39,046 nucleotides of DNA, from positions 1-39,046 of the IMG/VR virus record IMGVR_UViG_3300032329_000529; one strand, 5' to 3'. The DNA comes from a virus (taxonomy: Duplodnaviria > Caudoviricetes). The number at the start of each line of letters is the position of its first letter. The first letter of the stretch is position 1. The notes under the pieces were generated by a model. It was not told where the DNA came from. It saw only the letters and a list, made by a program, of their open reading frames with translations, and did not search any database. The translations under genes were made by a program, and so were the position numbers. Positions 2,325 to 37,187 of the stretch are shown here, in pieces.

Positions 2325-2981
2325 ATGAAAGTATTAAACTTATATGCTTGTCTCGGTGGTAATCGTTACAAATGGACTGATTGTAATGTAACAGCAGTTG
2401 AATTAGACCCAGTACTTGCATCATTATATCAAGAACGTTTCCCAAATGATACTGTAATAGTTGCCGATGCTCACCAATATTTATTAGACCATTATAAAAA
2501 GTTTGATTTTATTTGGAGTAGTCCTCCGTGTCCGAGTCATAGTAGGGCTAGATATTGGAGTAGCAGTAATTATGATACCGCTACGGATGCTGTTTACCCT
2601 GACATGAAATTATACGAAGAAATATTGTTTTTACAACATTATTTTAAAACAGGTAAATATGTAGTTGAAAATGTTATCCCTTATTATAAGCCTCTTATTG
2701 AATATCAAGAAAGAGATAGGCATCTTTATTGGACTAATTTTAAATTGCCAAATAATATTAGCTCTCGTCATTTTGATGGGATGTGCCAAACAAGTAATGA
2801 GCTTAAAAAGCTTTGTAAATTTCACGATTACGAATTTAAAAAATATGTAGATATGGGTGGGAAACAAATTGTTATTAAGATAGCTAGAAACCTTGTAGAT
2901 TATGAAGCAGGGCTAACAATATTTAATACTGCTAGAGGAATAATAACAGCTAATAATACTAAACAACTAACACTATTATAA
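2325..2981 (+). CDS. C5-cytosine DNA methyltransferase (short phage type)
   Basis: Motif I variant LYACLGG, motif IV SPPC (catalytic PC), motif VI ENV. Confidence 0.9.
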   Translation: MKVLNLYACLGGNRYKWTDCNVTAVELDPVLASLYQERFPNDTVIVADAHQYLLDHYKKFDFIWSSPPCPSHSRARYWSSSNYDTATDAVYPDMKLYEEILFLQHYFKTGKYVVENVIPYYKPLIEYQERDRHLYWTNFKLPNNISSRHFDGMCQTSNELKKLCKFHDYEFKKYVDMGGKQIVIKIARNLVDYEAGLTIFNTARGIITANNTKQLTLL

Positions 2982-3200
2982 ATGAGCAAACACACCTTTC
3001 AAATAGGCAACAAACTAGGCGGCAATAAGCCTAAGCCGTATAAGACTAAACAGATAAGGAAACACGTACCAGAGGATATTTTTAATGAAGTGATAGATAA
3101 TATTAACGATACAATAAAACAATGGAAACTTTTGAGCGGACACAAAAAAAGCAAATCACTAAAAGCATTGAAAATGTTAAAGGGATTACAAAAATCTTAA
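2982..3200 (+). CDS. Small basic DNA-binding protein (ribbon-helix-helix-like)
   Basis: KTKQIRKHVPEDIFNEVIDNI fits a strand-Pro-helix pattern. Confidence 0.5.
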   Translation: MSKHTFQIGNKLGGNKPKPYKTKQIRKHVPEDIFNEVIDNINDTIKQWKLLSGHKKSKSLKALKMLKGLQKS

Positions 3201-12722: not shown

Positions 12723-13832
12723 ATGATTTACATAAATATAACAGACATTAAGGCAAACCCAAAAAATCCTCGTGTAATTAAAGACGAAAAGTTTTCTAAA
12801 TTAGTTAAGTCATTACAAGACTTTCCAGAAATGCTAGAAAAACGCCCATTAGTTTGCTTCACTGACATAGATGGTAAGCTAGTAGTACTCGGTGGCAATA
12901 TGCGCCTAAAAGCGGCTAAAGAATGCGGAATGAATCAGCTGCCAGTTATACTTGCAGACGATTGGACGGAAGAACAAAAGAATGAGTTTCTGATTAAAGA
13001 TAACGTAGGTTTTGGTGATTGGAACATTGAAGAGCTGCAATCCGATTGGGACGTTGAGAAATTGGGAGAATGGGGGGTGGATATTCCTGCAGGATTTAAG
13101 GTGGAACTCGAAGCCGAAGAGGATGAGTTTGATATTCATGTTGGTGGAAGCGAAACCGACATAGTATTGGGTGATTTGTTTGAGATAGGGCCGCATAGAT
13201 TGCTTTGTGGTAGCAGTATTGATGCTGACCATATAAATAAATTAATGGTTGGTATTGATCCAGATTTAATACTTACTGACCCACCATACGGAATGAATGC
13301 AGTAAGTAAAAGTGGTGTATTAAAGGAAAGATATGGTAATGATATTTTAGGAGATGATAATACAGATGTTGCAAAAGATAGTTTTAATTTAATTTATTCA
13401 CTTTATCCTAAATCACATCATATTTGGTGGGGTGCTAATTATTATTCATCTGCATTGCCTGATAGTGAATGTTGGCTAGTATGGGATAAAAATAATGGAG
13501 GCAGCGACCAAACTGATTGTGAACTTGCTTGGACTAATATTAGAAGTGTTGTAAGACAATTTACACAAGCATCAGAAAAGACAAATAGAGTCCATCCTAC
13601 ACAAAAGCCAATTAAATTGGTAGAATGGTGTATTGAAAGAACAAAAGATAAAATTAAAAATATAGCTGATTTTTTTGGTGGTAGTGGAGTAATAATGGCA
13701 ACAGGACATCAAAAAGGAGTTCCAACATTCTTAATGGAACTAGACCCTAAATACTGCCAAGTAATAATAGACAGAATGAAAAAGTTAGACCCAACAATAA
13801 AAATAAAACGTAACGGAAATGCCATTCATTAA
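12723..13832 (+). CDS. ParB-N domain fused to an N6-adenine/N4-cytosine DNA methyltransferase (beta class)
   Basis: NPKNPR...GGNMRLKA ParB-N, catalytic DPPY, HPTQKP, DFFGGSG SAM motif; -7 element TAGTTTTG at 12710. Confidence 0.92.
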
Positions 13833-14253
13833 AGGAAACAATTACGGAAATACATTTAAGAAAGGACAAAGCGGTAACCCGAAGGGGCAGCCAAAAAAAG
13901 TATTGTCACGGGTTAATGAACAGCTAAAAGAAGAGGGATATTCTGCGGCTTCGGCTAATAATATAGTTGAAGCTTATTCTATATTGATTAACCTAGATGA
14001 AGAGCGTATTAAGTCAATAATAAGCGATAATAGTTATCCTATGCTTATGCGTATCGTGGCAAAAGAAATGCTGTCTAAGAACGGTGCAGAAATGATTGAG
14101 AAAATACTAGACAGGGCGCATGGTAAGGCAATACAAAAACAAGCCAAAGTTAACAAGGACGGGGAGGATGTAAATATAGGTTATGATATTTCCAAGCTAT
14201 CCGCTGAAACAATTAAAGAGTTATTAAATGCTTCCACTCCCGAAACCAAATGA
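13819..14253 (+). CDS. Terminase small subunit
   Basis: [14 protein letters not shown]-terminus (DUF5681-like), LDRAHGK; overlaps the terL start. Confidence 0.8.
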
Positions 14254-24863: not shown

Positions 24864-25874
24864 ATGGCATTATCTTACACAGCCGTTGACATTAGGGGCG
24901 TAGCCTTTAAAGATGTACTAGGAGAAATCCTATTTACAAACAACACCTTAGAGAAGGGGTTGGTAACATTTGCCGATAACATAAAGGCAAATTCAGTTTT
25001 TACAGATACAGCGCATAGTATCACATTCGCAGCTTACACAGCAGGAACGCCAACAGCAGCAGGAACTATTGGGGTAACTGATAAGATTGTTACACCTTTT
25101 AAGTTCCAAGCCTACGATACTTTCGATATGGAAAGCTTGAGAACAGGCCGCTTCAACCGTGATATGAAACAAGGTGCATGGAACATGACTTCAAGCGAAT
25201 TTGAAGCTACTGTACTAAATGGTATTAGTCCTTATGTTTCTCGTAAGGCAGAGGATACCTTTTGGAATGGTGCTAAAACAGCTACAAAAACAGCAGTTGC
25301 AGCCCTAACAGCAGGAACAGGTAATACAAGCGTAGGCGCAGCAGAACAGACTTATGTAGCAGCAGCACCAACAGGATTGATTGATGGGGTTGTTACTAAA
25401 ATGATTTACGATACTACTACAAGTGCAGTAGGGTTACGCCAAAAAGTAGCAGGTACTACTATTACTGCAAGTAACATATTCACTGAGTATGGTAAATTGT
25501 ACACAGGTACTAATGCAGCAGTTTTGCACGACCAAACAGCTACCCCACTTATCTACGCTCCTTATTCTCATTTAGCGTTCATTCGCCAATACAATACATC
25601 TAACACTTACAAGAGTGATGTATTCGTTGATAAGATTGTAGGTAACGAAATTTACTTCCAAGGCATCCCTGTTGTGTTTGTTCCATTGCCAGAAAACTGT
25701 ATGATTTTGGCTACTAAACAAAACATTGTTTGGGCAACTGATTCAATCGACGATACTACTTATTTGAAGATAGGAATGAGAGATTTAATTTCTGATACTA
25801 TGTTCTACAAAGTTGTTTTCTTAATGGAATCACTTGTAAGGAATCAGAAGTTTAACACACTTTACTTAGGGTAA
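24864..25874 (+). CDS. Major capsid protein
   Basis: 336 aa after protease/scaffold, EDTFWNG...IDG motif, strong hairpin downstream. Confidence 0.8.
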   Translation: MALSYTAVDIRGVAFKDVLGEILFTNNTLEKGLVTFADNIKANSVFTDTAHSITFAAYTAGTPTAAGTIGVTDKIVTPFKFQAYDTFDMESLRTGRFNRDMKQGAWNMTSSEFEATVLNGISPYVSRKAEDTFWNGAKTATKTAVAALTAGTGNTSVGAAEQTYVAAAPTGLIDGVVTKMIYDTTTSAVGLRQKVAGTTITASNIFTEYGKLYTGTNAAVLHDQTATPLIYAPYSHLAFIRQYNTSNTYKSDVFVDKIVGNEIYFQGIPVVFVPLPENCMILATKQNIVWATDSIDDTTYLKIGMRDLISDTMFYKVVFLMESLVRNQKFNTLYLG

Positions 25875-29275: not shown

Positions 29276-29988
29276 TGACTTTAAATAATATTTTTTCATA
29301 CTTACAAACTATGGGAGATTCCCATAAGCAGCTAAAGAAAACTATCATAAACGATAGAGATGAGTGGCTGTCTAATGGGGATGTAGATTACCCTTCCATG
29401 TTTTTAGAATTGAAGTCGGCTAAAACAAGTCGTGATAATAGAAGCACTATTTATACATTCGTTTGCATGATAGCAGATTTGTCAAATGTTGCTGCATTTG
29501 CACAAGAAAATCAACAGGAAGTACAAAGCGATTTAACACAAATAGCGGAGGATATACTTAGTTTATTGCAATATGAAAGCGATAAAAACAGCGACTTTAA
29601 AGCAAGTAGAGAAATTAATATCGAATACTTAACCGACCAATTAGAAGACATTGGGAATGCGATAGGTTTTGAGTTTAGTATAGCTACTAAATATGCAAGT
29701 AATCGTTGCCAAGTACCAACAAACTTTATTTCACCAAATGCACCAACTTCACCTTATATTATGGCAAACTATTCATTTAGAAATGATGCCCCAAAATATT
29801 CTTTTACTATTGAGGCATTGAAAAACAAACAAATACTATATTTGTCGATAGATGCAGAAAGCCCTTTAAAAGTAAATAGTAAACCTAATATAGATGAGTT
29901 CTACTATAATCAAAGTATAGGTGAATTTATCTTTGGTAAAGAGTTGCAAGAAGGTCAAATTATACAAATTTTAAATCGTTCAATATGA
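29275..29988 (+). CDS. Putative tail terminator with an extra C-terminal domain
   Basis: YPSMF, EVQSD..QIAEDI, CQVP, then about 85 extra residues. Confidence 0.6.
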   Translation: MTLNNIFSYLQTMGDSHKQLKKTIINDRDEWLSNGDVDYPSMFLELKSAKTSRDNRSTIYTFVCMIADLSNVAAFAQENQQEVQSDLTQIAEDILSLLQYESDKNSDFKASREINIEYLTDQLEDIGNAIGFEFSIATKYASNRCQVPTNFISPNAPTSPYIMANYSFRNDAPKYSFTIEALKNKQILYLSIDAESPLKVNSKPNIDEFYYNQSIGEFIFGKELQEGQIIQILNRSI

Positions 29989-32903
29989 GGATAATATTAA
30001 TATTTTTACTTTCAATATCTTTTTGTTATGGTCAAAATAGAGATACTTTAAAATATACGCCTAATAGGGATTATGGTGTTAATTTTAAAGCGATAAAGGT
30101 AGATAGTGCTTTTATTTTTCCTATAGATACAATAAAAAATAAACGTGGTGTAGCTATGTTAAGCAATACTATATATGTTGGTAATGGCACGTATTGGAGT
30201 TTATTAAGCGGACAATCACAATGGACTACCACAGGAAATAATATCTATTACAACGCAGGTAATGTAGGTATTAAGCTAACTAATCCGACATATCCACTTC
30301 ATGTTAATGGAGATATTAATATTAGTGGGGTAGATGCTTTTAGTAATCCAAACCAATATCGTATTAATGGAGGTGCAGGATTACTAGGTAATGGAAGTAC
30401 TTATACTAAGTTATTTAATCCTAGTGGGGCTGAAGGATTAACGCTAAATAGTAGCGGCGTTTTATTAGGCGGTTTTTATTCTGATAGTATTTTGTATTAT
30501 AATAATGGAAATAATTCTCTAAAGCTATATGGCAATATTACAACTGCTAAAGCTAGACTAGATACTACAGTTAGTAATGGATTAGTAACCCCTACAATGT
30601 TAGCTACTAAAGGAAGTGGAACAGTTACAAGCATATCAACAGGATTAGGATTGAGTGGTGGCACTATAACTAATACAGGTACATTATTGGTAGATACAAG
30701 TAGTACAAGTATATTGAGTAGACAACGTGCAGCGGCTACTTATCAATCAATTGCAGCAGCTATCACAGGCAATAGCCCTACTATAACATCAAGTAAAGTA
30801 CCAGTTACTTATTGGAATGGCACAAACCACATAGGCTATACAAACGGTGCAGTAATAGATAGCATTGCAGGTAATTTATTTGTAAACAATCTTATCGTAC
30901 GTAGCACAACAGTAATATCAAGTTCAACCCCTATCAGTATAACAGCATCTTCTATACATAATTACATTATCACAGGCAGTACTAATCAAGTGGTAAATAT
31001 GGCAAATGCTACTACATTGCCAAAAGGTGCAATGTTTACTTTTAATAACAATGGAAGTACAGGCGTAGATTCAATAAGAAATAGTTCTGGAACTTTGATT
31101 TTTGCAGTACCAAACGGAGGTTATGCTACTATTATTTTGAATGATAGCACAACGGCAGCAGGGACATGGGATTGGCATTTTAGCGCACCATCAGCAGTTC
31201 AATGGAGTACTAACACATTTAACTTGGGAAATGCAAGTATAACTAACGCAACATGGAACGGGTCAGTTATACCAGTAAATAAGGGCGGTGCAGGTGCAGT
31301 AACAGGAATATTAAAGGCAGACGGTAGTGGTAATGTTAGCGCAGCAACAGCAAACACGCCGATAACAATAACTAGCGGTGTAATAGGTGTAGATACTATA
31401 ACAAGATATACAGGATTAGCTACAATAGGCAAAACATATAATGATAGTTTAGTATTAGCAACGGCAATAAACAATAAAGGAGTAGGCACTATCACGGGCG
31501 TAACAGCAGGATTAAACTTAACAGGTGGCGGAACTACAGGAACGGTAACGCTAAATGCAGATACAACAACAGGGACAACTAAATTAGCCACACAAGGATT
31601 TGTTACTAGAAACGCAACTAATTTAACTGCATCACAACCGATAAGAATTACAGCCAATGTAATCAATGCCGACACTATTACAAGAGCAACAGGATTAGCA
31701 ACGATTGACCAATTAGTAAAGGATAGTACTGTTTTGGCGAACGGAAAACTAAACATATCCGATACAGGTAGTATGCTAAACGGCAGAATTAACGCAATCA
31801 CTTTAAACAGCAGCGGAGTAATTCACAACAGCCCTATTAATTTCACAAGATTAGGGGGAGGATGGACGGGTCAAATGACACTTGCTAATCAATCGGCTTA
31901 TCAATTATTTGGTACAGGTAATAGCACATCTACACCTACTTTTAGGTTTATCGATAGTAATTATTTTAATGGCGGATTTGCGACACAGGTAAGAGGAGCG
32001 GTAGGTAGCGGATTAACAGGTGCAATTGCAGCAGGGAGAATACCTTACGGCGCAAGTTTAACAACCCTTAGTAGTAAATCTAATTTTCTGTACGATAGTA
32101 CTAATGCGGGTGGTATAAGACTTGGAGATACAACAATTACAGGTACAGGGGTGACAAACCCGTCTTATATTGAGTTTGGGGCTAATTATAACGTATCACC
32201 TATACTTAATCCCCAAATAAGATTTGCACATACATCTAGCACATTATATGGGATAGGCGTAACTACAACAGGATTTAATATGATAGCTCCAAACACAAAT
32301 TTTATAAATCAAAACAATGGAAGCGGTAGTATATCAATTACTCCAACAGCAACAAATGGAAGTATAAATATTAATGGAACTAATGCCTTTGTGATTGCCC
32401 AAGGGTTTAGCGGAACGGCGGGTCAAAATCCTAAATATCAACTTTATCAAAGTTCGACAGGAATAGGTATTAGCGGTAGTAGTATTGATTATACAACAGG
32501 TAGTACTAACTTTAATCATGCCTTCTGGATTAATAATGGTGGAACTATTACAAGGGCGGCAACTATATTTAATACTACGGGTAATTTGAGATTAGGCACA
32601 ACAAATACAGATCCAAGCGACAAGTTAGGAATAGAAGGTAACTTGTCATTATTGAATGTAGGAAATAAATTAAAGATAGCAACAGGATTAAATGCAAGCG
32701 TAGGAACTGCCACACTATCAAGCGGAACAATTACTGTAAACACAACGGCGGTAACTGCTTCATCAATAATACTACTTACACTTCAAAACTGTTCAAATTG
32801 TGGCACTCCTTATATATCCGCTAAGACAGCAGGAACATCTTTTTTGGTAAGTTCAACCAATGTATTAGACGGGTCAATAGTGGCATATCAAATAATAAAT
32901 TAA
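29985..32903 (+). CDS. Tail/neck fibre-like adhesin with an N-terminal Sec signal peptide
   Basis: 972 aa, G/T/S/N-rich, GNVGI and GTVTSI..G.GL.GG repeats, DT..LAT stalk repeats; MRIILIFLLSISFCYG-Q. Confidence 0.8.
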   Translation: MRIILIFLLSISFCYGQNRDTLKYTPNRDYGVNFKAIKVDSAFIFPIDTIKNKRGVAMLSNTIYVGNGTYWSLLSGQSQWTTTGNNIYYNAGNVGIKLTNPTYPLHVNGDINISGVDAFSNPNQYRINGGAGLLGNGSTYTKLFNPSGAEGLTLNSSGVLLGGFYSDSILYYNNGNNSLKLYGNITTAKARLDTTVSNGLVTPTMLATKGSGTVTSISTGLGLSGGTITNTGTLLVDTSSTSILSRQRAAATYQSIAAAITGNSPTITSSKVPVTYWNGTNHIGYTNGAVIDSIAGNLFVNNLIVRSTTVISSSTPISITASSIHNYIITGSTNQVVNMANATTLPKGAMFTFNNNGSTGVDSIRNSSGTLIFAVPNGGYATIILNDSTTAAGTWDWHFSAPSAVQWSTNTFNLGNASITNATWNGSVIPVNKGGAGAVTGILKADGSGNVSAATANTPITITSGVIGVDTITRYTGLATIGKTYNDSLVLATAINNKGVGTITGVTAGLNLTGGGTTGTVTLNADTTTGTTKLATQGFVTRNATNLTASQPIRITANVINADTITRATGLATIDQLVKDSTVLANGKLNISDTGSMLNGRINAITLNSSGVIHNSPINFTRLGGGWTGQMTLANQSAYQLFGTGNSTSTPTFRFIDSNYFNGGFATQVRGAVGSGLTGAIAAGRIPYGASLTTLSSKSNFLYDSTNAGGIRLGDTTITGTGVTNPSYIEFGANYNVSPILNPQIRFAHTSSTLYGIGVTTTGFNMIAPNTNFINQNNGSGSISITPTATNGSININGTNAFVIAQGFSGTAGQNPKYQLYQSSTGIGISGSSIDYTTGSTNFNHAFWINNGGTITRAATIFNTTGNLRLGTTNTDPSDKLGIEGNLSLLNVGNKLKIATGLNASVGTATLSSGTITVNTTAVTASSIILLTLQNCSNCGTPYISAKTAGTSFLVSSTNVLDGSIVAYQIIN

Positions 32904-32908
32904 TAAGC

Positions 32909-33268
32909 ATGAAAAAAATACTTTTATCAATCAGTTTGTTTGCGGCTATTTCAGTATCGGCGCAAACTATCTACAAGTCAATAAAGACAGCTACGGTAGC
33001 GGCTGTTAATCCTGTTGTGTTTAGTCCAACATTTGCAGAGAGTGATACGGCTAAATATGTTGGCTATTTCGGCTATACAGACACTCCGAGTGATACCATT
33101 TGCAAAGTTGATTATGTAGTTAAAGGTAATAGCGACAATAGAAATGTATTGTTTGGAAGTTACACTTTAACTAAACAAGAATACGCTAATTGGGTGTATG
33201 ACGAGGATTTGATTCTATACGTGAGAAACTATTTATCGACTAAAGGCTTAACACTAACATTCAAATAA
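32909..33268 (+). CDS. Secreted protein, possible fibre chaperone or tip
   Basis: Signal peptide MKKILLSISLFAAISVSA-Q; directly after the fibre gene. Confidence 0.75.
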   Translation: MKKILLSISLFAAISVSAQTIYKSIKTATVAAVNPVVFSPTFAESDTAKYVGYFGYTDTPSDTICKVDYVVKGNSDNRNVLFGSYTLTKQEYANWVYDEDLILYVRNYLSTKGLTLTFK

Positions 33269-33303
33269 ACTTCCAATTAAAACCTATTGATTACTACTTT
33301 AAA

Positions 33304-33543
33304 ATGTCAACGAATACAATGGAACATTTACACGCCGCTAATGCTCATAACAAGTTAAGTCTAATAGGGTTGATTATATCTTGGATATGCGGAATATTGG
33401 CTAAAATTGAGATTAATGCGATAGCTAGTACGGCGTTAATATGGGTGTCATTAATCACAGGGTTAGCGACATTAGGTTTTACCATTGATAAATGGATACA
33501 AATGAGAAAGGCAATTAAAAAAGGCAACAAATACAATTATTAA
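33304..33543 (+). CDS. Holin-like membrane protein
   Basis: Two hydrophobic segments and a basic C-terminus. Confidence 0.6.
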   Translation: MSTNTMEHLHAANAHNKLSLIGLIISWICGILAKIEINAIASTALIWVSLITGLATLGFTIDKWIQMRKAIKKGNKYNY

Positions 33544-33547
33544 TATT

Positions 33548-33745
33548 ATGAAAAGTTTAAAGACAACATTAGGCGGTTTAATTGGTGGTTTGGCCTTAGC
33601 CATTAATCCATTACTTGAGGCTTACAAGGCGGGTGCATTTGATGGTAAAACAGGTAGTCAATTAGTAGGGGCTATTGCCATTGTGCTTATTGGGTATTTC
33701 TCACAAGATATTAAAAAGGCAACGGGCGGCGATACACCACAATAG
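33548..33745 (+). CDS. Holin-like membrane protein
   Basis: KTTLGGL...IG.F.QD, two TM segments. Confidence 0.65.
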   Translation: MKSLKTTLGGLIGGLALAINPLLEAYKAGAFDGKTGSQLVGAIAIVLIGYFSQDIKKATGGDTPQ

Positions 33746-33748
33746 ATT

Positions 33749-34004
33749 ATAGTGCAGTAGCAAGAAGTGTCGACAAAACGGAGACACTTGCCACTCCCAT
33801 CGAATTATAATTTAACGCAGTAATAAAAAAAAACACCAGTCGGCTTTAAGGTAACTAAACGTGCTGCGAACATTTAACCTTTAAGTTTAGTAGTTGTGAG
33901 GGTGACACAAACTGCATTATTTAAGCACCCATAATTTACTTAGGTGCAAGCCGTAGGGCGTTCAACTTGCCGCAGCCGATGAAATTGAAGCTGCGGTACT
34001 TTTT
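33749..34004 (+). ncRNA. Candidate large structured ncRNA
   Basis: Gap with no long ORF, GC-richer than the genome, more than 8 complementary helices including a 10-bp closing helix. Confidence 0.65.
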
Positions 34005-34012
34005 ATTGAATT

Positions 34013-34096
34013 ATGAAAACAATACTTGCATTAATAGGCGTTTACTTCTTACTAAGAGATTTGTGGTATTGGTTACTAAATAAAATGTTTAGATAG
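34013..34096 (+). CDS. Small membrane peptide (27 aa)
   Basis: MKTILALIGVYFLLRDLWYWLLNKMFR, stops 1 nt before the spanin ATG. Confidence 0.55.
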   Translation: MKTILALIGVYFLLRDLWYWLLNKMFR

Positions 34097-34097
34097 T

Positions 34098-34586
34098 ATG
34101 AAAAGACTGATATGTTACGCATTGGCATCAACACTATTTATAGTTGGTTGTATGTCAATTGAAAAAGCTACTGATAAAGTAATATCCGACAAAGCAGCGA
34201 CTAATAAGGTATTGGATTTGCATCCTTGTAAGCCTGTTAGTGATAGTGTGATTACTCATATTGATACACTAACTACACATGATACTATTACCAACGTAGG
34301 GTACTTTATTGACAGCGTTACTAAGTGGCGTTATGATACAGTTGTCCGAAATATTCGGACATTTCAATTGATACATAAGACGGATACACTCTTTGCAATA
34401 GACCAAAGAAAACTAGATGTTATGAATAACTCTATATCAATTCGTGATTCGCAAATTGTGGGCTTAAAACAATCCCTAGAGGACGAAACCACACATAGTA
34501 AGGATAAAGATAAATGGCTTTACTTATTTATAGGATTGTTTACATTAGTATGTGTTTATATAGCTTTTAAATTGTTTGTGAAATAA
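34098..34586 (+). CDS. Unimolecular spanin (u-spanin) candidate
   Basis: N-terminal lipoprotein signal (FIVG-C) plus C-terminal TM helix, in the lysis cassette. Confidence 0.7.
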   Translation: MKRLICYALASTLFIVGCMSIEKATDKVISDKAATNKVLDLHPCKPVSDSVITHIDTLTTHDTITNVGYFIDSVTKWRYDTVVRNIRTFQLIHKTDTLFAIDQRKLDVMNNSISIRDSQIVGLKQSLEDETTHSKDKDKWLYLFIGLFTLVCVYIAFKLFVK

Positions 34587-34729
34587 TGCTAAACGTAATC
34601 CCATTAAATGATTTAAAAGAGCATGAGGAACAATCTACTTGCGAATGTTGCCCTACTTTAATTATTGTAAACGGGGAAATGATACTAATACACAATTCAT
34701 ACATTAAACGTGAAAAAAAAGAAAATTAA
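34586..34729 (+). CDS. Small Cys/His protein (47 aa)
   Basis: MLNVIPLNDLKEHEEQSTCECCPT...IHNSY; coupled via TAATG. Confidence 0.6.
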   Translation: MLNVIPLNDLKEHEEQSTCECCPTLIIVNGEMILIHNSYIKREKKEN

Positions 34730-34732
34730 AAT

Positions 34733-35035
34733 ATGACAATAGAGCAACAAAAATTAGTATCGGCAAATAGAATAATGAATAGTAGTCCTATGATTTTAGG
34801 TAACTTATCGCCTATATTATTGCAAATACAAAAACTACTACCTAAACATTATTTAGTATCACTTAATAATGACAAAAAAAGTATTAATTGTGTATCCTTA
34901 ATTGATAAGGGCATTACCGATAATGAATGGGATGAATTTAAGCCTAAAGCAAAAAGTATTATAGGAAATAGTTTTTTAGAATTTTACAGTAATATATGTA
35001 CTAATCATTTAGATTTTATTATTTATGTCAAATAA
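34733..35035 (+). CDS. Hypothetical protein
   Basis: 100-aa ORF. Confidence 0.7.
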   Translation: MTIEQQKLVSANRIMNSSPMILGNLSPILLQIQKLLPKHYLVSLNNDKKSINCVSLIDKGITDNEWDEFKPKAKSIIGNSFLEFYSNICTNHLDFIIYVK

Positions 35036-35423
35036 AATTAAGCAACGCCCAGACTACTATTTAAGGCAACAATGTACTTCTAAGGATTTAAAGGCTATTT
35101 GCTATTTCAATAGAATAATAAAAAATTATAAAAGAATGTTACTAATGGATAATAATAAGTAATTATGCAAGAAGTCGCATATTATATATTTAAGCAAATA
35201 ATAAAGTATACGGTAATAGCTACTGTTGTAGTTTATGGCATAATCTATTTACTATATAAACTATTTTAAATGAAAGAATACACAGTAACAATCAACGGCG
35301 GTAATCCTATCACGGTACTAGCTAACACCTTAGAAGAAGCAACGCAAAAAGCTATGAACTACAACATGATAGGCGATTGTGATGCAGTTGAATATTTGAG
35401 TAATATGTTTAATTTGAAAGGTA

Positions 35424-35885
35424 ATGAACACAGTAAATAAGGCAACTATAGACTTAATAAAGTCATTCGAGGGATTTAGTGCAAAGGCTTATCATGATGC
35501 AATAGATCCGCCAAATGTGGACACAATCGGATATGGAAGTATACTTTATGAGGATGGAAGAAAAGTAAAGGTAGGTGACGCAGATATAACAGAACAAAGA
35601 GCTGTACAAATATTAATGTGGGAAGTAAACTTAAAATCTAAAGCAGTAAGTAAACTAATTACATCGAAAGTAAACGATAATCAATTCGGGGCTTTGGTTT
35701 CATTTGCCTATAATTTAGGCGAAGGCAACTTATCTAGCAGCACATTACTAAAGAAAGTTAACGCTAATCCAAACGACCCTAGTATTCAGCTTGAATTTGA
35801 TAAATGGATATACTCTAACCACTTGCCCGTTAAAGGCTTAGAACGCAGGCGTAGAGCAGAATGGACACTATATAATACTAAGTAA
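35424..35885 (+). CDS. Endolysin, GH24 (T4/P22-like) lysozyme
   Basis: IKSFEG...AYHD...TIGYG catalytic E-D-T arrangement, QFGALVSFAYNLG, GL..RR.AE. Confidence 0.95.
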   Translation: MNTVNKATIDLIKSFEGFSAKAYHDAIDPPNVDTIGYGSILYEDGRKVKVGDADITEQRAVQILMWEVNLKSKAVSKLITSKVNDNQFGALVSFAYNLGEGNLSSSTLLKKVNANPNDPSIQLEFDKWIYSNHLPVKGLERRRRAEWTLYNTK

Positions 35886-35945
35886 TATGCCTACTCCTAT
35901 AATTCGATTTGAACCTTTGAAGATTATTAACACAATGTCTAAAAT

Positions 35946-37187
35946 ATGTCTACCGATAAGGAAAAAAGTAAAGGGAAAGTTGAATTAATAAAGGAGTATT
36001 ATTTAGCTAATCAGTCCGAAGATTTACAAGTAATTTCCGATAAGTTCAAAAGCAGTAAACACACAGTATCGAATATTGTATCGTCTCTTCGAAAAGAGGG
36101 TAAAGTTCCACCATTGCCAGAAGGTTATAATAAAGGCAAAAGAGATAAACATAAGGCATTAGAGCAAGAGTGTGAAGTAACAGGATTACCCGCTGAAAGA
36201 GTATCGCATTATTGGTGGAAAACAAAAGACGCATCTATATTTGTCAAGTGTGAACCTAATGAAGAAATCGACATTTTAAATCAAATAGAGGACTTAATAA
36301 CCGAAAGATTAACAACTAGAATACAAATACCAATAGACCCTAAAGAAAGCTGCCAAAAAGCATTAAAAGTAACCATTTCCGATGCGCACGTGGGTTTAGA
36401 ACCAAACCCCAATGGTTACGGAATTTATAACTACAAATACAACGCTGATATATTCTTTCAAAACTTAGATAGCGTTTACAATTCTGTTATAGCTAAATAT
36501 AATCAATTCGGGAAATTTGACACTTTATTTATTGATGACTTAGGGGATGGGTTAGACGGATGGAACGGATTAACTACTCGTGGCGGTCACGACTTACCAC
36601 AAAATATGAGTAACGTAGATGCCTTTAAAACTTTCGTTACAGGAAAACTAAATTTAATCGAAAGGCTAATAGCCGCTAATGTATCGGATAACATAGAGTG
36701 CCGTAATGTGTCAAATGATAACCATAGCGGAGACTTTGCAAGGATAGCGAATGAGACTATCAAAATGATATTAGATAGGATTTACGGTGAAGGACAAATA
36801 GGATTTAAGATACTCAATAAATTTGTTGAGCATTTTTTTTATGGCGACCACTGCTTTATCCTTACTCACGGGAAAGACGAAAAGCAAAGAGTTAAAAATC
36901 TATCTTTAGACCTTACACCAGCTATTGTAGAATTTTTTAGAAGTTACATTGATTATCACGGTATTAATTCAAAGTTTATTCATGTAGATAAAGGAGATTT
37001 GCACCAATTAGGATATAAGCGTTGTAATAAGTTCGATTACCGCAATTATATGTCATTTGCGCCGCCATCCTTTCACAGTAGCCATAATTACAACGGCTCT
37101 TATAGTGGCTATTCAATTCAAGTAATAGACAAACATTCAGCAACGGTAAGCCATGAAGATTATTTCTTTGATTTGACTAAGTTATAG
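35946..37187 (+). CDS. Calcineurin-like metallophosphoesterase with N-terminal HTH
   Basis: SDAHVG, LGDGLDG, NDNH, THG and GDLH metal-binding motifs. Confidence 0.85.
   Translation: MSTDKEKSKGKVELIKEYYLANQSEDLQVISDKFKSSKHTVSNIVSSLRKEGKVPPLPEGYNKGKRDKHKALEQECEVTGLPAERVSHYWWKTKDASIFVKCEPNEEIDILNQIEDLITERLTTRIQIPIDPKESCQKALKVTISDAHVGLEPNPNGYGIYNYKYNADIFFQNLDSVYNSVIAKYNQFGKFDTLFIDDLGDGLDGWNGLTTRGGHDLPQNMSNVDAFKTFVTGKLNLIERLIAANVSDNIECRNVSNDNHSGDFARIANETIKMILDRIYGEGQIGFKILNKFVEHFFYGDHCFILTHGKDEKQRVKNLSLDLTPAIVEFFRSYIDYHGINSKFIHVDKGDLHQLGYKRCNKFDYRNYMSFAPPSFHSSHNYNGSYSGYSIQVIDKHSATVSHEDYFFDLTKL

Follow-up and report, generated by a model that had tools for sequence, protein, structure and literature searches.

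Does the gap between the holin and spanin genes of this phage encode one large structured RNA and, if it does, what would such an RNA do to the late message? The DNA analysed here, referred to as the window, is one complete virus record of 39 kb (39,046 nucleotides), in which the stretch 33749-34004 lies between a holin-like and a lipoprotein-like open reading frame (ORF), 1.4 kb upstream of the endolysin gene. A first-pass annotation had described this stretch as a single pseudoknotted RNA of approximately 250 nt, closed by a 10-bp helix. The genes flanking the gap are all on the plus strand and are as follows.

33548..33745, plus strand, gene for a 65-aa holin-like membrane protein (ORF)
34013..34096, plus strand, 27-codon ORF read from the sequence, a possible small accessory gene (no Pfam match)
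34098..34586, plus strand, gene for a lipoprotein-like protein with a hydrophobic C-terminal segment (ORF)
35424..35885, plus strand, endolysin (PHROG 7, E = 1.6e-37)

The labels holin and spanin rest on anatomy and on leads from the Atlas, without family matches. The holin-like ORF has no match in PHROGs or Pfam, and its nearest Atlas cluster (score 0.95), automatically named holin, serves as a lead only. Likewise, the product of 34098..34586 gave no family match in PHROGs or Pfam and has as its nearest named Atlas cluster a lipoprotein anchor (0.88; a lead only); with an invariant Cys18 and a hydrophobic C-terminus conserved in three relatives, it is likely to be a one-piece spanin.

Two features point to a Bacteroidota host. 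A virion structural protein of Cellulophaga phage phi46:1 shares 45% identity with the product of ORF 24864-25874, and TATATTTG boxes are found repeatedly in the intergenic regions of the window, TAnnTTTG being what we take to be the Bacteroidota promoter motif. The flanking genes all run on the plus strand and no TAnnTTTG box is present on that strand from 29928 to 36236, so that the holin-spanin gap probably sits within a long late transcript. None of the sequencing runs listed as containing this sequence is an RNA run, which carries no information on its expression. On the minus strand, 33746-33773 matches a sigma-70-type promoter at 11 of 12 positions, directed antisense into the holin-like gene; relatives have a different sequence here, and the promoters of the host are probably of another type.

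The gap has, as first annotated, no long ORF (longest stop-free stretch at most 32 codons), and all 10 helices named in it pair fully. The "dense complementarity" put forward as evidence did not, however, separate the gap from shuffled sequence, stems of 5-10 bp being no commoner than in shuffles. Watson-Crick stems of at least 7 bp numbered 3 against 2.5 expected and, in the best of ten such tests, the observed count was reached in 6 of 60 shuffles. The folding energy, proposed as a check against shuffles, gave a divided answer. The whole 276-nt region folds more stably than 200 of 200 shuffles (z = -3.31, with -2.47 for the minus strand), whereas the core at 33814-33918 shows no such excess (z = 0.3-0.4), and the value for the region drops to -1.4 once the last hairpin is removed. 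The folding score of the region thus stems from its first and last hairpins, which belong to two of the three interchangeable cassettes (A and C) for which the gap was shown to be a hot spot:

33749..33813, plus strand, cassette A, a variable hairpin containing the 5' arm of the 10-bp closing helix (z = -2.23)
33814..33918, plus strand, cassette B, a predicted multi-pseudoknot RNA of about 105 nt (homologue at 3077-3178 of record L179)
33922..34004, plus strand, cassette C, two small hairpins at 33925-47 and 33950-59, then a third, terminator-like one carrying five U at 33968-98 (homologues)

The modular nature of the gap was evident from public contigs, of which pieces were obtained for 3 of 4 sequencing runs; X2, X3 and X4 below denote runs. 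An 18.7-kb contig, approximately 90% identical on both flanks, has 8 letters in place of 33810-34012 and lacks both B and C; the deletion in X4 ends exactly at the ATG of the 27-codon ORF (34013), and cassette A of X4 carries 7 listed indels. The X2 and X3 contigs match from 33784 onward, X3 with 1-2 differences per 140-nt piece, and have other sequence upstream, while one further contig matches 33923-33973 only. Related phages were gathered by pattern scans and an endolysin search, and their slots were tabulated for the 20 closest endolysin loci, 19 of which reach the holin-spanin gap. B occupies 5 of these 19 gaps, with all five copies identical to each other, and C occurs without B in 3 of them; the remaining gaps hold different hairpin units, or another module of ~95 nt in the slot of B. 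In other relatives the slot of cassette A likewise holds a different hairpin, and C is present without B in L121 and L130. In the second lineage, represented by L179, B is found without A or C, starting a few bases past the stop codon of a holin that is only marginally like that of the window. Profile and model searches of 60 more distant endolysin loci, outside the table, gave nothing beyond chance.

These comparisons largely refute a 250-nt RNA in which 33749-58/33911-20 forms the closing helix and long-range pairings reach the 3' hairpins, a model to which we now give hardly any credence. In this one genome the long closing helix has the lowest energy of the options (-11.2 kcal/mol, versus -4.4 for P1, the closing helix predicted for B) and may form. 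Its 5' arm, however, is absent around L179, X2 and X3 carry other sequence in the part upstream of 33784, and in X4 the 5' arm persists, altered, where the 3' arm is missing; judged from these alignments, the helix cannot belong to the conserved unit. Partner arms for the pairings 33900-04/33926-30 and 33841-46/33948-53, both part of the original proposal, and an arm of the hairpin 33765-89 are also absent around L179. In place of a single RNA there is thus a core of ~105 nt, the remainder being two cassettes that relatives carry independently. As a general account, a leader setting the timing of lysis is unlikely, since the core is absent from 14 of the 19 related lysis regions.

B itself travels as a unit: the B-carrying record G014 gave no tblastn match to the head, portal, large terminase and tape-measure-region ORFs of the window. 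Close to the small terminase, the window and G014 have two adjacent ORFs in common, at 83-97% identity. Within 12723-14253 of the window, the N-terminal part of ORF 12723 (83%) and ORF 13819 (97%) are shared with G014 and absent from the B-lacking records tested, and this sharing probably reflects mosaic exchange.

Other elements were seen in the same region of relatives. Module F (~95 nt; L182 502-595, also in L183 and L185) takes exactly the place of B behind the same holin; it contains several complementarities that cross one another, is of a single sequence type and has no Rfam match. A family of hairpins whose internal loops have similar letters and whose apical stems vary, also without an Rfam match, follows the holin stop codon in L121 (2400-2436), L130 (2122-2171), L184 (788-855) and L186 (2635-2702). 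Placed among the lysis-region RNA cassettes are a Tad2-like anti-defence gene (L130 2202-2432; Pfam E = 3.2e-21) and a crAss001_48-like gene (L184 993-1253). Even if B does not cleave RNA, several RNA modules that are uncatalogued share this slot, in alternation with an anti-defence gene.

Cassette C looks like a terminator or a 3'-end hairpin. Its 17 pairs are all kept in 3 sequences, the last helix showing two double changes, so that homologues bear out the final hairpin as first drawn; a pair-count control nevertheless equalled this in 100 of 500 shuffles and was not significant, and a terminator scan did not call the 33968-98 hairpin, its loop being 13 nt. A tRNA-like reading of 33957-71 was rejected, as ARAGORN reported 0 genes and the T-loop-like 33961-67 varies in L121 and L130. 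An analogous three-hairpin unit of different sequence lies 3' of B in L179, and a terminator-like hairpin is found 50-90 nt downstream of B in both lineages.

The L179 homologue of cassette B was detected by nhmmer with an E-value of 9.6e-12, and a model built from the window alone aligns it at 88.6 bits. The two versions are identical in 84 of 100 columns. Six helices are compatible with both sequences, and all 30 of the 30 modelled pairs are kept in L179. The predicted pairings are given below, with an alternative to P1.

33817-21/33911-15, plus strand, P1, predicted closing helix of B (5 bp invariant; 8 bp in L179)
33816-22/33862-68, plus strand, alternative to P1, mutually exclusive with it (7 bp in the window, 6 bp in L179)
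33834-37/33901-04, plus strand, helix between a hairpin loop and the stretch 3' of the A-rich run (six-helix model)
33841-44/33863-66, plus strand, helix whose 33863-66 strand lies in the long middle loop of the pseudoknot (six-helix model)
33848-52/33877-81, plus strand, S1 of a predicted H-type-like pseudoknot (invariant)
33854-60/33885-91, plus strand, S2 of the predicted H-type-like pseudoknot (covaries)
33894-98/33906-10, plus strand, hairpin of 5 bp with a 7-nt loop (within a 23-nt block invariant in L179, no covariation)

The homologue upholds the inner pseudoknot formed by S1 and S2 and the hairpin at 33894-33910, both proposed at first pass. The helix 33816-22/33862-68 survived in part, retaining 6 bp in L179 and losing its end pair through a change at 33816, a position outside the counted columns. 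A further alternative pairing in B joins 33877-83 and 33897-903.

Having two mutually exclusive partners for 33817-21 in both sequences, followed by a terminator-like hairpin in both, B might be pictured as a switch, or a sensor for a ligand, governing read-through of that hairpin and thereby timing the spanin and endolysin. We consider this improbable, as the downstream units differ in sequence between the lineages and occur without B, the pairings of the window's B with C are absent in L179 and neither alternative pairing overlaps the terminator.

Evidence for the fold comes from S2, which in L179 shows two compensatory double changes and one deletion on both strands. Since S2 was predicted from the window alone beforehand, its conservation is a real test of the proposed pseudoknot. 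In an alignment-free comparison S2 has 7 bp in both versions (shuffle p = 0.012 and 0.002), whereas strands mixed between the window and L179 give only 2 and 4 bp. Outside S2, changes fall at 0 of 33 paired positions versus 10 of 53 others for the helices named in the first-pass annotation (Fisher p = 0.012), and at 0 of 46 versus 10 of 40 for the six-helix model (p = 0.0002, with two helices chosen after seeing the alignment). B is known from two sequence types, between which five of its six helices never vary and so stand as predictions; the pair-count control on these two rows was equalled in 131 of 500 shuffles and was not significant, and 28 of 2000 column shuffles gave some helix with two double changes. 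When both versions were aligned without guidance, S2 did not emerge as a helix common to them, and folding of B without pseudoknots gave no signal (z = 0.33 and -0.21). Taken together, the comparisons indicate that B is very probably a selected RNA fold, and the covarying homologue supports the original proposal of a structured, pseudoknotted, uncatalogued RNA candidate.

Selection on pairing, as shown by the compensatory changes in S2, also bears on two other readings: that the cassettes work at the DNA level, whether as recombination sites formed by folded single strands or as mini mobile elements, and that B is a neutral passenger that has recently spread. The slot is occupied by modules in some cases and by small genes in others, recalling attC-like arrays of the kind discussed for the DUF1874 motif in the part of PMC5737381 available to us, and the 97% identical gene common to the window and G014 attests to recent exchange. 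Yet B is single-copy in each record searched, and its crossing helices and G-U pair suit an RNA better than a hairpin recombination site; a DNA-level or neutral element therefore seems improbable as well.

In keeping with the first-pass statement that no known RNA class could be assigned, Rfam 15 gave 0 matches in the window at the gathering threshold; at E-values up to 10, the best scores in the window and the homologue were no higher than 16.5 bits. Neither of the outcomes set beforehand against the annotation, poor folding energy together with no covarying homologue, or an Rfam match, was observed. The rest of this genome yielded no known ribozyme either. Models for pistol, twister-P1, twister-sister and HDV-like (RF02682) ribozymes each matched 0 of 5 records at E up to 10, circular permutations of pistol, twister, twister-sister and HDV-like ribozymes lying outside the scope of these models. 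For the hammerhead, the core motifs CUGANGA and GAAA, which surround its three-way junction, are absent on both strands of both B copies and the type II model (RF02276) matched 0 of 5 records. A group I intron, judged by a P3-P7 core with an invariant G-binding pair and a P4-P6 domain, was likewise rejected: RF00028 matched 0 of 5 records, no gene is interrupted and the would-be P7 helix varies freely. ARAGORN found 0 tRNA or tmRNA genes.

The hatchet model (RF02678) gave a partial match in 1 of 5 records, the L179-type copy, at 12.7 bits (cut-off 51; E = 0.128). For this match B has to pair with coding sequence of the holin, which is missing from the window; the window itself scores nothing, and the likeness comes down to one short run of similar letters in the L179-type copy. 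According to the sections seen of PMC4604424 and PMC6561176, hatchet is cleaved at the 5' base of its P1 hairpin, which has 3 or 6 bp, and contains conserved segments at C20-A22, U28-G31, G63-G66 and A73-A75. In contrast, the window contains no complement to 33817-22 upstream of B for such a 3- or 6-bp hairpin, the letters aligned with U28-G31, G63-G66 and A73-A75 differ in L389 and the window has A at the place equivalent to G66, a change that nearly abolishes cleavage in hatchet (excerpt of PMC6561176).

Comparison was also made with type III antitoxins, which consist of tandem repeats of 34-36 nt, the length given for the ToxI-type monomer in an excerpt of PMC5086642, with a terminator and a toxin gene. 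B is single-copy, about 105 nt long and has extra helices; no repeat longer than 7 nt occurs within it, the ToxI model (RF02519) has no match at B and only weak matches elsewhere, and the genes downstream match no toxin family. B was accordingly rejected as ToxI-like on repeats, length and model score (compared with excerpts of PMC5086642, PMC8860590 and PMC3475682). It does resemble the pseudo-ToxI of phage TE, described in the portion of PMC3475682 available, in its H-type-like knot, A-rich single strand, phage location and the anti-defence gene nearby in one relative. On this precedent B, once excised from the late message, could work in trans by decoying a defence protein of the host, as phage mimics of type III antitoxins do, and in L130 the equivalent slot is taken by the Tad2-like gene. 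We regard a decoy as rather unlikely, given that B has no tandem repeats, is three times the length of a ToxI-type monomer, goes unmatched by RF02519, lacks a promoter of its own and would be expressed late. As regards an antisense role, the longest match to B elsewhere on the plus strand of the genome is an A-rich 11 nt.

The explanation we rank first is that B punctuates the late transcript by self-cleavage, to which we assign a probability of about 0.35; it is followed in order by a stabilising or RNase mark, the decoy, the switch, the DNA-level or neutral element and the 250-nt model. B would fold into a compact multi-pseudoknot RNA inside the late message and cut it between the holin-like gene and the spanin and endolysin genes, separating the holin message from the downstream messages, which could then decay or be translated independently. 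Such a cut would be an optional refinement, because most relatives are without B. Self-cleavage is placed first because B has the size, knots, invariant junction letters and operon position of small ribozymes; its changing neighbours also fit. The small phage ribozymes (hammerhead, twister, twister-sister, pistol, hatchet and HDV-like) are like B in their ~100-nt size, pseudoknots and position in operons, but B, with a predicted fold, has no covariance-model match, none of the core motifs and a different order of crossing helices. As precedents, hammerheads are found flanking changing prophage genes and, in vitro, cleave polycistronic RNA (excerpt of PMC3088659), and processing of polycistronic messages is the role proposed for such ribozymes in the section seen of PMC6765202.

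The figure is no higher because, in the same part of PMC6765202, many conserved RNAs near ribozyme-associated genes did not cleave and because motifs with 3' terminators were judged to be at odds with self-cleavage, and did not cleave, in the portion of PMC5737381 at hand. The terminator-like hairpin 3' of B in both lineages speaks against cleavage in the same way. B has no constant downstream gene and no conserved pairing with that hairpin. [quoted passage not shown]

The terminator-like hairpin also bears on the second-ranked explanation, for which we hold a lower, though not negligible, expectation, namely that B is passive punctuation, a knot that blocks host exonucleases or offers an RNase site and so stabilises the holin message. 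B begins just after the stop codon in L179, and plain hairpins or module F take its slot elsewhere, as expected of exchangeable stabilisers. However, a terminator-like hairpin is already present 3' in both lineages, and the invariant loop and junction letters of B, including the 23-nt block, are more than a roadblock needs.

Few small ribozyme classes are known, and what they do in phages is still conjecture. We put forward, tentatively, that B may be the first of a new class of small self-cleaving ribozymes with three crossing helix sets, and that this gap in Bacteroidota-type phages swaps undescribed catalytic or regulatory RNAs. B exists in two natural versions, and its present and absent alleles in otherwise similar lysis regions offer a direct test of an effect on the operon.

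Further copies of B were sought in several ways. A 14-mer scan of viral contigs (57 of 64 parts) returned 119 loci, all chance, and a scan with a hairpin-loop 14-mer (38 of 64 parts) also returned 119, in which the sole B copies were of the L179 type (3 loci). No new homologue emerged from holin and spanin as single-protein queries or from whole-record searches of 50 and 40 virus records, two patterns had 0 matches in GTDB genomes, and blastn against cultured phages and plasmids gave short chance matches only. A sequence-free descriptor applied to 3.4 Mb recovered the two known B types and 13 unrelated sites, taken as chance; L398, a weak model match inside a coding gene, was rejected as a homologue. 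Two unrelated records, L259 (~2400-2540, minus strand) and L336, share the hairpin-loop 14-mer in what appears to be another conserved non-coding stretch, without a match to the B model.

No paper describing B was found by title or by the start of the abstract in a mostly open-access literature. In the catalogue of conserved RNAs from IMG/VR (csRNAs; 8,495 alignments; Fremin et al., 2023, PMC10690425, of which parts were consulted), three motifs, each searched as DNA and as RNA, are absent from 3 of its 6 files, and an anonymous prior listing of B there is possible. On present comparisons, B can be described as a real, rare, uncatalogued RNA module of ~105 nt, new in its predicted fold, whose role is probably of a known kind.

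An 18-mer of cassette C (33943-33960) is identical to a segment of most members of a group of phage N4/N6 DNA methyltransferase genes. About 9 independent chance matches to the 18-mer were counted and none of six related records has such a gene, and the identity may be due to chance. In the methyltransferase genes (L134 2501-2630, L138, L141, L150, L153, L154, L160, L163 and L164), the DPPYG codons are immediately followed by a stop codon, owing to a conserved insert of 8 nt (9 nt in L150), and no paper on this insert was found by title or abstract start in the mostly open-access literature. The segment shared with cassette C is a 5' segment complementary to the DPPYG codons, with compensatory changes in L141, and the insert is a candidate for programmed ribosomal bypass or a mini-intron.
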